From positions 1 through 43,674 of IMG/VR virus record IMGVR_UViG_3300045988_068477: 43,674 nt of DNA; one strand, written 5' to 3'. The position numbers and the translations under genes were made by a program. Shown here piece after piece: positions 26,577 through 26,865 of this stretch; positions within the stretch are counted from its first letter, which is position 1; the number at the start of each line of letters is the position of its first letter. The notes under the pieces were generated by a model. It did no database searches and was not told the DNA's origin. It saw nothing but the letters and a program-made list of their open reading frames with translations. The stretch comes from a virus.

Positions 26577-26605
26577 TTGACAAAAAGCGGCGCTATTGGT
26601 AGAAT
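26577..26605 (+). promoter_or_regulatory. cassette A: plus promoter TTGACA-17-TAGAAT
   Basis: The sequence reads TTGACAaaaagcggcgctattggTAGAAT. Confidence 0.75.
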
Positions 26606-26667
26606 GACGATGGCGCTGCCATAACGGTAGGCGGTTCGGCCACTACCCCTGAAAGGGGGTGAGGCCC

Positions 26668-26745
26668 ATGCGGATCACATTACATATCGGGCGGTTCACC
26701 GTTACGATTATTGTGAAAAGCAGAAACCGCCACTCGGCCAAGTGA
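26668..26745 (+). CDS. micro-ORF, MRITLHIGRFTVTIIVKSRNRHSAK (25 aa)
   Basis: GGGGGTGAGG SD lies 4-13 nt upstream. The paralog at 27725..27802 differs mostly at synonymous third positions. Confidence 0.55.
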   Translation: MRITLHIGRFTVTIIVKSRNRHSAK

Positions 26746-26816
26746 CGGTTTCTATAGCTTCGCTATTCAACTGACACAGGGCTGAACCGCTTATCGGCAG
26801 CGCCCTATCTATTCTT

Positions 26817-26844
26817 ATTATAGCCAACCCAGCCGCTTTGTCAA
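26817..26844 (-). promoter_or_regulatory. cassette A: minus promoter TTGACA-16-TATAAT
   Basis: Minus-strand reading is TTGACAaagcggctgggttggcTATAAT. The -35 sits inside the plus terminator hairpin. Confidence 0.75.
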
Positions 26845-26865
26845 GTATGGACAGGGCGGTTTTTT
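26833..26865 (+). terminator. cassette A: plus-strand intrinsic terminator
   Basis: CCGCTTTGTC pairs with GACAGGGCGG (10 bp including two G.U pairs, so it is plus-specific), followed by TTTTTT. Confidence 0.75.

Follow-up and report, generated by a model that had tools for sequence, protein, structure and literature searches.

What purpose is served by a 25-codon open reading frame (ORF) that a gut phage carries twice, each time between convergent promoters and within a pair of outward-facing terminators? The question is raised by IMG/VR virus record IMGVR_UViG_3300045988_068477, analysed here over its whole length of 43,674 nt (the window), which is the complete genome of a temperate gut phage. 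Two segments of this genome, cassette A (26548-26865) and cassette B (27611-27918), each about 330 nt long and 84% identical to one another, had been singled out in an earlier sequence-only reading as sites of fully overlapping sense and antisense transcription resembling type I toxin-antitoxin loci. On the genomic evidence assembled below, we consider it reasonably probable that each cassette is a self-contained, horizontally acquired moron carrying a type I toxin-antitoxin-like module, in which a tiny peptide would be kept off by a tightly folded mRNA and a convergent antisense RNA.

The eight promoter and terminator signals on which that reading was built were all recovered where it had placed them (promoter scores are matches to the twelve consensus positions):

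26577-26605, plus strand: cassette A sense promoter, TTGACA-17-(TG)GTAGAAT with a TAGAAT -10 element; 11/12, TG-extended; predicted transcription start (+1) at G26612.
26844..26817, minus strand: cassette A antisense promoter, TTGACA-16-TATAAT; 12/12; its -35 element lies inside the sense terminator hairpin.
26548-26571, minus strand: cassette A outer terminator, a GCCGCCC/GGGCGGC stem at 26554-26571 with seven G-C pairs and a U-run from 26553 to 26548 (TTTTTT); the plus strand lacks a T-run here.
26833-26865, plus strand: cassette A sense terminator, CCGCUUUGUC-AAGUAUG-GACAGGGCGG then UUUUUU; 10-bp stem and 7-nt loop, from sequence and fold.
27636-27664, plus strand: cassette B sense promoter, TTGACG-17-(TG)GTAAGAT with a TAAGAT -10 element; 9/12, TG-extended; predicted +1 at G27671.
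27902..27875, minus strand: cassette B antisense promoter, TTGACA-16-TATAAT; 12/12.
27611-27633, minus strand: cassette B outer terminator, stem 27633..27618, from a terminator scan.
27886-27918, plus strand: cassette B sense terminator, stem 27886-27913 followed by TTTTT, from a terminator scan.

The sense terminator of cassette A went unlisted by two scans because greedy extension of its stem into the T-run (G26832.T26860, A26831-T26861) leaves only 4 T. Cassette B had been taken to repeat cassette A exactly, which overstates the likeness: in addition to the 84% identity, its sense promoter scores 9/12 as against 11/12 in A. Perfect copies of TTGACA-N16-18-TATAAT occur at four sites in 43.7 kb, compared with 0.00 in 100 shuffles, and the cassette antisense promoters make up two of these.

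The cassettes belong to a large, undescribed family found in Oscillospiraceae and their phages. An 18-mer from the end of the ORF, used as the first seed, retrieved 66 stretches from gut viral contigs, eight of which were dropped as chance matches inside unrelated genes; a 23-mer from the 3' arm of the RNA helix described below retrieved 96 stretches from gut viral contigs and at least 120 from bacterial genomes. With an nhmmer profile run over these loci, at least 210 full-length cassettes were collected, 171 of them unique when flanks are included. Almost all of the bacterial matches listed come from Oscillospiraceae and their relatives, cultured isolates included, the carriers being Oscillibacter, Dysosmobacter, Lawsonibacter, Gemmiger, Yanshouia, Neopoerus and Acutalibacteraceae; some loci hold two to five copies, and some copies stand back to back. 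Among named strains, Neopoerus faecalis CMD_1836 has the identical MRITLHIGRFTVTIIVKSRNRHSAK cassette at L165 and a helix-type cassette at L189, and Gemmiger formicilis DFI.6.10 has one of the beta class described below (L118); the 3'-arm seed was also matched in Lawsonibacter hominis NSJ-51 (L122), Yanshouia hominis BX1 (L130) and Oscillibacter valericigenes An860 (L138). A blastn search of the INPHARED phages with cassette A gave no match, and the covariance models of Rfam, those for txpA/RatA and bsrG/SR4 among them, gave none at gathering threshold (best E ~0.9 in a permissive scan). Searches of open-access full text, covering the peptide strings and type I systems in Oscillospiraceae or gut metagenomes, likewise gave no description of the cassette family, and the papers found report no type I system in Oscillospiraceae. 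A few seed matches fall elsewhere. Those in three contigs of metagenome-assembled genomes labelled Bacteroidaceae/Alloprevotella (L121, L149 and L175) look like binning contamination or phage contigs, and those in the isolates L131 (Variovorax) and L160 (Catenulispora) look like chance 23-mer matches, the profile search having given only a short partial match in L160.

Across this family the antisense promoter is kept with unusual fidelity. It scores 12/12 in 148 of the 171 unique cassettes and at least 11/12 in 167, its -35 element reads TTGACA in 164, and its -10 element begins 11-14 nt past the 3' arm; the site lies outside both search seeds and the hidden Markov model. The sense promoter is weaker and more variable (median 8/12), with a TG-extended -10 element in 116/171. 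In about half of the cassettes this -10 element ends 6-8 nt upstream of the first G of the helix's 5' arm, a distance that sets the transcription start where the closing helix begins; the remainder mostly have a larger gap, of about 22-27 nt in some 50 cassettes, several of which carry an extra hairpin there.

Between the two promoters lies the micro-ORF:

26668-26745, plus strand: cassette A micro-ORF, MRITLHIGRFTVTIIVKSRNRHSAK, 25 aa plus stop.
27725-27802, plus strand: cassette B micro-ORF, MRITLHIGPFTVTIVVKSRNRHPGR.

Its ATG stands 6-7 nt downstream of a Shine-Dalgarno (SD) sequence, AAAGGGGGUGA, that is nearly invariant among 90 homologues. Among 55 unique 25-codon ORFs, variation in codons 2-16 falls almost entirely on third positions, with synonymous variation (pS) of 0.49, nonsynonymous variation (pN) of 0.04 and a pN/pS ratio of 0.08, compared with ratios of 3.2-3.3 in the shifted frames. 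By this pattern of substitution the micro-ORF is a translated-type sequence under strong purifying selection, and it takes its place among selected small ORFs (<60 aa) with their own translation signals. Codons 17-22 (KSRNRH) behave differently, none of their three positions showing any variation. They make up the 5' half of a hairpin (P3) and supply a U-tract on the other strand; their fixation at every position points to a constraint at the level of RNA.

That constraint is one part of an elaborate predicted fold of the sense RNA, which comprises a long helix closing the 5' end upon the 3' end (P1), a hairpin that holds the SD, and P3 at the stop codon:

26612-26641, plus strand: cassette A P1 5' arm, from the minimum free energy fold; it holds a local metastable hairpin, CUGCC-AUAAC-GGUAG.
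26780-26804, plus strand: cassette A P1 3' arm, from fold and covariation.
27671-27699, plus strand: cassette B P1 5' arm, from fold, alignment and covariation.
27840-27862, plus strand: cassette B P1 3' arm, from alignment and covariation.
26646-26662, plus strand: cassette A SD hairpin, CCCCU-GAA-AGGGG at 26646-26658, with the SD at 26652-26662.
27703-27720, plus strand: cassette B SD hairpin, CUCCC-GGAA-GGGAG, with SD GGGAGGUGA; compensatory changes relative to cassette A.
26722-26753, both strands: cassette A hairpin P3, spanning codons 19-25 and the stop; minus-strand tail GCUUUUCAC; putative antisense terminator.
27778-27811, both strands: cassette B hairpin P3, 14 pairs, flagged by the terminator scan; minus-strand tail CUUUUUACGA; putative antisense terminator.

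In P1, the 5' arm GGCGCUGC..GGCAGGCGGUUAGCC pairs with the 3' arm GGCUAACCGCUUGUYGCAGCGCC; the arms of cassette A alone form a duplex of -48.9 kcal/mol. Relative to shuffled sequences, the whole fold scores z = -6.4 on the sense strand and z = -5.6 on the minus strand. When P1 and P3 were mapped onto 90 cassettes of the window's own peptide class (the beta class, below), 98.7% of cells could pair, compared with 33-50% when the partners were slid by 1-3 columns. Changes on both sides of a pair were seen at 11 pairs, as against 4.9 +/- 1.3 in shuffles, none of 500 shuffles reaching 11; examples are pair 47:252, which goes from UA to CG in 8 sequences, and the P3 pairs 180:190 (CG to UA in 37) and 168:201 (GC to AU in 11). 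Cognate arms also bind better than non-cognate ones (-42.1 versus -40.5 kcal/mol over 119 unique arm pairs; 0/2000 permutations). Two viral contigs, L024 and L049, have exchanged the outer part of P1 on both sides (GGGATACTGC/GCAGTCATCCC) and carry an extra hairpin between the -10 element and the 5' arm; judged by their sequences, they are a natural compensatory double variant.

The two helices differ in the kind of pairs that they use. P1 is rich in G.U wobbles (36:261, for example, in 70 of the 90 sequences), and since a G.U pair becomes an A.C mismatch in the complementary RNA, the sense RNA is where P1 is under selection; P3 has Watson-Crick pairs only and so is able to work on both strands. 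The SD, for its part, is half-buried in a GNRA-capped hairpin and has a mean unpaired probability of about 0.2 over 114 cassettes. The predicted fold thereby combines SD sequestration with long-distance 5'-3' pairing, as expected of an mRNA whose translation is restricted, and the micro-ORF, the sequestered SD and the 5'-3' closing helix noticed at the outset prove to be real features by fold, conservation and covariation alike.

What kind of peptide is guarded in this way? The family gives several answers. Sister cassettes have both arms in common, as well as the SD hairpin, the antisense promoter and a P3 that is homologous (core ACCGCC...GGCGGT), and differ strongly in their ORFs. One class encodes hydrophobic peptides with Lys-rich tails (MVTYSELFQLCLVLIGFAGLIIQICKRK, MATWTEIFSFSTVLIAFAGLIVQICKKK and others, of the MVTYSELF...KRK and MATWTEIF...KKK types); a second hydrophobic class ends in KAC or KAR, as in MWVGRLRTALRFLVCLALTLYILTTKAC; and the beta class, the dominant type in the sample, includes the window cassettes. 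In the hydrophobic classes the stop codon stands at the start of P3, and the Lys codons give the antisense U-tract. Their peptides have the sequence feature of membrane-associated type I toxins, which the window peptides lack. Against Hol_Tox (PF16935), the best sister peptide reached 20.6 bits, short of the 23.3-bit gathering threshold (E 4.1e-4 when scanned alone); when the Lys-tailed class was scanned, 3 of 14 members gave E <0.01, the best being 5.6e-4. Against NCBIfam, Lys-tailed peptides came closest to PepG1 (E 2.4e-4) and ComI (E 2.1e-4), of which PepG1 is a Staphylococcus type I toxin; the window peptides match none of the three families. That this chassis carries classical-looking hydrophobic peptides is the strongest argument for regarding it as a type I toxin-antitoxin regulatory platform. 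The argument is one of association, and toxicity of the beta-class peptides would not follow from it.

Tandem cassettes in bacteria lie about 25-125 nt apart (L140:2055-2732, L151:5460-6148 and L125:34-726), and some of these arrays mix peptide classes: L140 holds a Lys-tailed helix type and a KAC-tailed type, L151 two of helix type, and L125 two of beta type.

The window peptide itself, MRITLHIG(R/P)FTVTI(I/V)VKSRNRH..., has ITLHIG and FTVTIIV as its longest uncharged stretches. AlphaFold2, given the two window peptides with five non-native upstream residues (30-mers) in a two-row alignment, predicts a beta-hairpin whose two 7-residue strands cover MRITLHI and FTVTIIV (residues 6-12 and 15-21 of the 30-mer), with a mean predicted local distance difference test score (pLDDT) of 73, rising to 87 over residues 11-20; for so short a peptide, this is a hint only. 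Divergent relatives (MPITLTFHILQWTVTIKV..., MPITITLHIFGYTVTIRI..., MRFTLTFHIGHKTVTLSLVV... and MRLTITLTLRKLMFQFII...) retain two runs of alternating hydrophobic, Thr, His and Lys residues, a variable 2-residue turn and a basic tail. The prediction and this retained pattern suggest an amphipathic Thr-ladder beta-hairpin with a cationic tail, and the alternation resembles that of the membrane-spanning hairpins of beta-barrel pore formers. The peptide had been called atypical at the outset, and it is so, having no transmembrane helix and a predicted beta-hairpin instead. In an exact look-up of ten peptides of the family among 15 billion proteins, only one was present, as a single unnamed copy.

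It is possible, if on balance unlikely, that the guarded product is no toxin at all, and that the chassis is a generic tight-off device for an antisense-controlled accessory peptide such as a regulator, an anti-defence or superinfection-exclusion factor, or a partner of the neighbouring holin and endolysin that adjusts the timing of lysis. The want of a hydrophobic transmembrane helix like those of known type I toxins would be explained, and so would the position of both cassettes at the junction of tail and lysis genes, where cassette B abuts the endolysin; several homologues may likewise precede lysis-like genes, to judge by eye from their opening residues. Purifying selection, moreover, speaks for the importance of a peptide and not for its toxicity. 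Yet the identical chassis carries peptides like those of classical type I toxins, and a heavy translational lock joined to an always-consensus antisense promoter is what would be expected for a forbidden product. The many unrelated contexts of the family, integrase neighbours included, also leave such a peptide with no fixed functional partner. For these reasons a toxin-antitoxin-like module is still preferred.

How far the antisense RNA of this module extends bears directly on how it would act. Complete overlap of the two transcripts over about 200 nt had been predicted, covering the SD and the entire micro-ORF. That prediction passed over the hairpin at the stop codon, which on the minus strand is followed by a U-rich tail (27811..27778 in cassette B, tail CTTTTTACGA; 26753..26722 in cassette A, tail GCTTTTCAC). 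Short antisense RNAs ending there are predicted as follows:

26810->26716, minus strand: predicted short antisense RNA of cassette A, about 95 nt, from promoter and terminator positions; start 7 nt after the -10 element, end in the U-run past P3.
27868->27772, minus strand: predicted short antisense RNA of cassette B, about 97 nt, from promoter and terminator positions.

The RNA of cassette A would overlap the last 10 codons and 65 nt of the 3' untranslated region (UTR), the 3' arm included. Both short RNAs fold as a 5' stem-loop followed by a terminator stem-loop, with z = -4.9 (A) and -4.2 (B). In 160/171 cassettes, 78-92 nt separate the predicted antisense start from the end of the P3 G+C core, and at least 5 T occur in the 10 nt past P3 on the minus strand in 150/171, compared with 44/171 on the plus strand. 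The usual antisense RNA is probably one of about 95 nt that ends at P3 and is complementary to the last 10 codons and to the 3' UTR with its 3' arm. As a cis-encoded RNA with its own promoter and complementarity to the mRNA, it would be an antisense RNA of the expected kind.

Complete overlap as the main arrangement, with the antisense RNA running to 26548-26571 or 27611-27633 and the internal hairpin purely structural, now appears rather improbable. In its favour, a canonical minus-strand terminator stands immediately before the sense promoter in both window cassettes, a position in which it would be most useful if the antisense RNA reached that far; such an outer terminator is found in at least 43/171 cassettes, and the internal U-tract of cassette A is short and interrupted. 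However, no other minus-strand terminator was detected within 90 nt upstream of the 5' arm in 128/171 cassettes (by a scanner that undercounts terminators), yet the internal hairpin keeps its distance in 160. The scan flags that hairpin as terminator-like in cassette B, the outer terminator is equally well explained as a fail-safe for the late operon, and the G.U wobbles show the large fold to be selected on the sense strand only. A toxin-antitoxin-like module with a short antisense RNA is the arrangement favoured here; read-through to the outer terminators may still yield a form of about 260 nt that overlaps everything, and the two forms may coexist in the window. The overlap had also been taken to set the cassettes apart from known loci, a view that probably does not survive comparison. 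In the Gram-positive families TxpA/RatA, YonT, SprG and BsrE/G/H, the antisense RNA is encoded toward the 3' side, where it overlaps the end of the ORF (T1TAdb, PMC8594479); provided that transcription ends at P3, the cassettes would have this normal layout.

Each such module appears to move as a unit. Directly after the stop codon of the 601-aa tail-fibre-like ORF (26539-26541), and before the phrog_22773 gene, cassette A is bordered by a short direct repeat:

26542-26548: GAAAGGA, left copy, bordering the cassette A insert.
26874-26880: GAAAGGA, right copy, now the ribosome-binding site (RBS) for the gene that starts downstream with the ATG at 26890.

Seventeen phages that carry relatives of this downstream gene all have an empty site, in which the RBS and ATG of the phrog_22773 gene come within about 20 nt after the tail-fibre stop. 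The closest of them, L235, which carries cassette B only, reads TAA-GAAAGGAG-ACCCAAT-ATG, and the window holds 332 extra nt between its two copies of GAAAGGA. The inserted unit takes in both outer terminators and both promoters, from which it follows that the whole insulated module moves as a single piece. Cassette A is, in other words, an autonomous unit set between genes that are adjacent in relatives, as phage morons are. As the repeat is itself an RBS sequence, recombination at short RBS-like homologies would account for the insertion better than transposition. Elsewhere in the family, 190 distinct flanking contexts were found, with neighbouring genes in more than 110 clusters; integrases recur among them, as does a protein that by appearance may be a ribbon-helix-helix regulator.

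It is very improbable that the cassettes are selfish miniature mobile elements or transcriptional insulators without cargo, with inverted arms or terminator-like ends serving as terminal repeats. The insertion polymorphism with its 7-bp direct repeat, the many copies in diverse contexts, and the imperfectly inverted ends of the cassette A insert (26549-26561 and 26854-26865; AAAAAAGCCGCCC / GGGCGGTTTTTT) would all suit such an element. These ends, however, probably mimic terminal repeats because both are outward-facing terminators. The direct repeat would also fit illegitimate recombination at gene boundaries, as in other morons, the flanks are common to only a subset of cassettes, and peptide selection and RNA covariation attest to a maintained cargo. 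A miniature inverted-repeat transposable element with the P1 arms as its terminal repeats was considered and rejected, the insertion boundaries lying outside the promoters and terminators and not at the conserved arms.

That the cassettes are structured non-coding RNAs or small RNA pairs with an incidental micro-ORF has next to no probability. Both strands fold far beyond shuffles, and nucleotide-level conservation extends over the arms and P3, but the third-position variation of the ORF, set against ratios above 3 in the other frames, effectively refutes this reading. The SD and start codon are also kept, the alternating hydrophobic/Thr pattern persists in divergent sub-classes despite their different sequences, and no Rfam family matches.

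How, then, would a toxin-antitoxin-like module of this build operate? We infer from the sequence the transcription of both strands, the position of the antisense 3' end, the mode of repression and the toxicity, which combine into the following scheme. A sigma-A-type promoter would start the sense RNA at the first G of the 5' arm. In the nascent RNA, the SD would be trapped within an extended hairpin, GGCC...GGCC; in the completed RNA, the 5' arm would instead close on the 3' arm, about 170 nt downstream, in an interrupted helix of about 25 bp (about -42 kcal/mol). Helix closure, together with the SD in its GNRA-capped hairpin, implies an mRNA that is stable and poorly translated. Just outside the 3' arm, the perfect-consensus antisense promoter, usually the stronger of the two, would fire an RNA that mostly ends at P3, on a U-tract encoded opposite the Lys/Arg codons of the basic peptide tail. 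This RNA would pair with the 3' arm and the end of the ORF, possibly starting at the complementary P3 loops; the resulting long duplex would be a likely RNase III substrate and lead to decay, and the pairing would free the 5' arm to extend the SD hairpin and trap the SD more tightly. The peptide would in this way be kept off for as long as the element is present and transcribed. Should the antisense RNA fail, through loss of the element or host shut-off, or be titrated by late read-through transcripts, the peptide would be made. Its action as an effector, probably membrane-active or otherwise growth-inhibiting, is the weakest link of the chain. The outward-facing flank terminators would shield the late operon from the cassette and catch antisense read-through. 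By analogy with known systems, prophage maintenance, abortive defence or release at lysis are the likely biological roles.

The likeness to type I systems that the sequence-only reading proposed is thus borne out by the architecture, the fidelity of the antisense promoter, the covariation, the purifying selection and the hydrophobic sister peptides, and only its complete overlap and exact repetition fall away. Several observations nevertheless weigh against the scheme. No hydrophobic stretch of the window peptides is long enough to form a transmembrane helix, and in Pfam, NCBIfam and PHROGs these peptides gave no credible match, toxin families included; a search of PDB sequences with the beta-class profile was equally empty; and the matches of sister peptides to Hol_Tox, PepG1 and ComI all fall under the curated cut-offs. 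Conservation of the arms is such that the majority of P1 pairs show no variation, and the 3' arm is in part fixed by the search seed. The internal U-tract of cassette A is interrupted (GCUUUUCAC), so that termination at P3 may be partial there. The window sense promoters are strong, both being TG-extended, and the rule of a weak toxin promoter is a trend of the family that is not evident here. Finally, a comparison of accessibility with the arm engaged and with the arm released favours a switch, but is near-trivial by construction and was not counted.

Comparison with known systems places the cassettes closest to those of Gram-positive prophages. Like txpA/RatA, bsrG/SR4, bsrE/SR5 and yonT/SR6 of Bacillus subtilis and CD-toxin/RCd of Clostridioides difficile phiCD630-1, they combine a tiny ORF with a convergent antisense RNA of about 100 nt (here predicted), whose promoter lies downstream of the ORF, and they reside in prophages. 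The basic Lys-rich C-terminus of the sister peptides is a further likeness, and maintenance of the element would be a plausible common function: prophage-borne type I systems are described as stabilising prophages (PMC7699646), and one such system as aiding phage release (PMC8621323). Unlike these systems, the cassettes have no sequence or Rfam match, their chassis has a 25-bp 5'-3' helix beginning at +1, the window peptide is a predicted beta-hairpin, and the hosts are Oscillospiraceae.

A second likeness is to hok/Sok and aapA1/IsoA1, Gram-negative type I systems with control by mRNA folding, a long-distance 5'-3' lock and metastable nascent hairpins (concepts as in PMC6733600 and PMC5416894). 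The cassettes, too, would lock the full-length mRNA from 5' to 3', hold the SD in a local hairpin and form metastable 5' hairpins, as predicted from their folds. Unlike those systems, in which the 5' or initiation region is the antisense target and 3' trimming brings activation, they would be targeted at the 3' arm and the end of the ORF. Membership of the hok/Sok family is not indicated: the antisense promoter is at the 3' end, there is no conserved overlapping leader ORF like mok, and the sequences are unrelated. As for morons, the cassettes resemble them in having their own promoter and terminator, in lying between genes that are adjacent in relatives and in being carried by a temperate phage, and differ from the usual ones in being insulated on both sides, in their convergent promoters, and in a cargo that consists of a 25-codon ORF and an antisense RNA. 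The plan of a type I-like module is already known; what is undescribed is the RNA chassis and the host range, to which a non-canonical class of peptide is added.

To our knowledge, type I membrane toxins have uniformly been described as alpha-helical. Against this background, a further proposal is offered tentatively, as something possible that falls well short of probable: that the beta-class peptides (MRITLHIGxFTVTIIVKSRNRH, MPITLTFHILxWTVTIKV...) form a new structural class of toxin, a minimal amphipathic Thr-ladder beta-hairpin with a cationic tail that oligomerises into a pore of the beta-barrel type or acts in some other non-helical manner, and that the chassis is a plug-and-play platform of Oscillospiraceae mobile elements into which unrelated effector ORFs (a beta-hairpin, a BsrG/Hol-Tox-like helix, a KAC-tailed helix) have been swapped. 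If the beta-hairpin is toxic, the structural repertoire of type I toxins widens, and a 25-residue model peptide is gained. At least three unrelated peptide types on one chassis would in any case amount to a natural experiment in the recruitment of effectors by antisense-guarded platforms. The Oscillospiraceae are an abundant and poorly studied gut clade in which the chassis can be recognised at the DNA level; in gut communities the cassettes would bear upon the stability of prophages, on conflict between phage and host and possibly on when lysis occurs. They account, too, for strong convergent promoters by which phage genome annotation would otherwise be misled.

The genome around the cassettes is bounded by a 77-nt perfect direct repeat (1-77 and 43598-43674), which marks it as a closed circle or as terminally redundant. 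Its temperate gene set comprises an integrase, a repressor-like gene, a holin, an endolysin and Sak/NinB recombination genes. Cassette B stands between an 88-aa ORF and the endolysin, whose start is most likely the TTG at 27921, the PHROG match beginning at residue 3 of the ORF opened there. The SD-like sequence of the endolysin, GGGGGTG (27908-27914), is the 3' half of the cassette B sense terminator hairpin, an arrangement through which cassette B may influence endolysin translation.

The remaining two perfect consensus promoters of the genome lie at 7192..7164 on the minus strand and at 38379-38407 on the plus strand. The former appears to drive a counter-oriented module of three genes, from about 7133 down to 6193, just upstream of the ORF taken as the first packaging gene; the final ORF of this module may be of XRE-type helix-turn-helix kind by its appearance, and the module may be another moron. 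In the structural-gene region, a full-length match to the Rfam gut-2 RNA (RF02990) was found at 13600-13646 on the plus strand (53.9 bits, gathering threshold 39.8). Finally, an early or accessory region holds a plus-strand ORF for a pentapeptide-repeat protein (40509-41189) with A[DN]LS[GDV] repeats, within which positions 40593-40819 consist of 15 tandem copies of a 15-nt unit.

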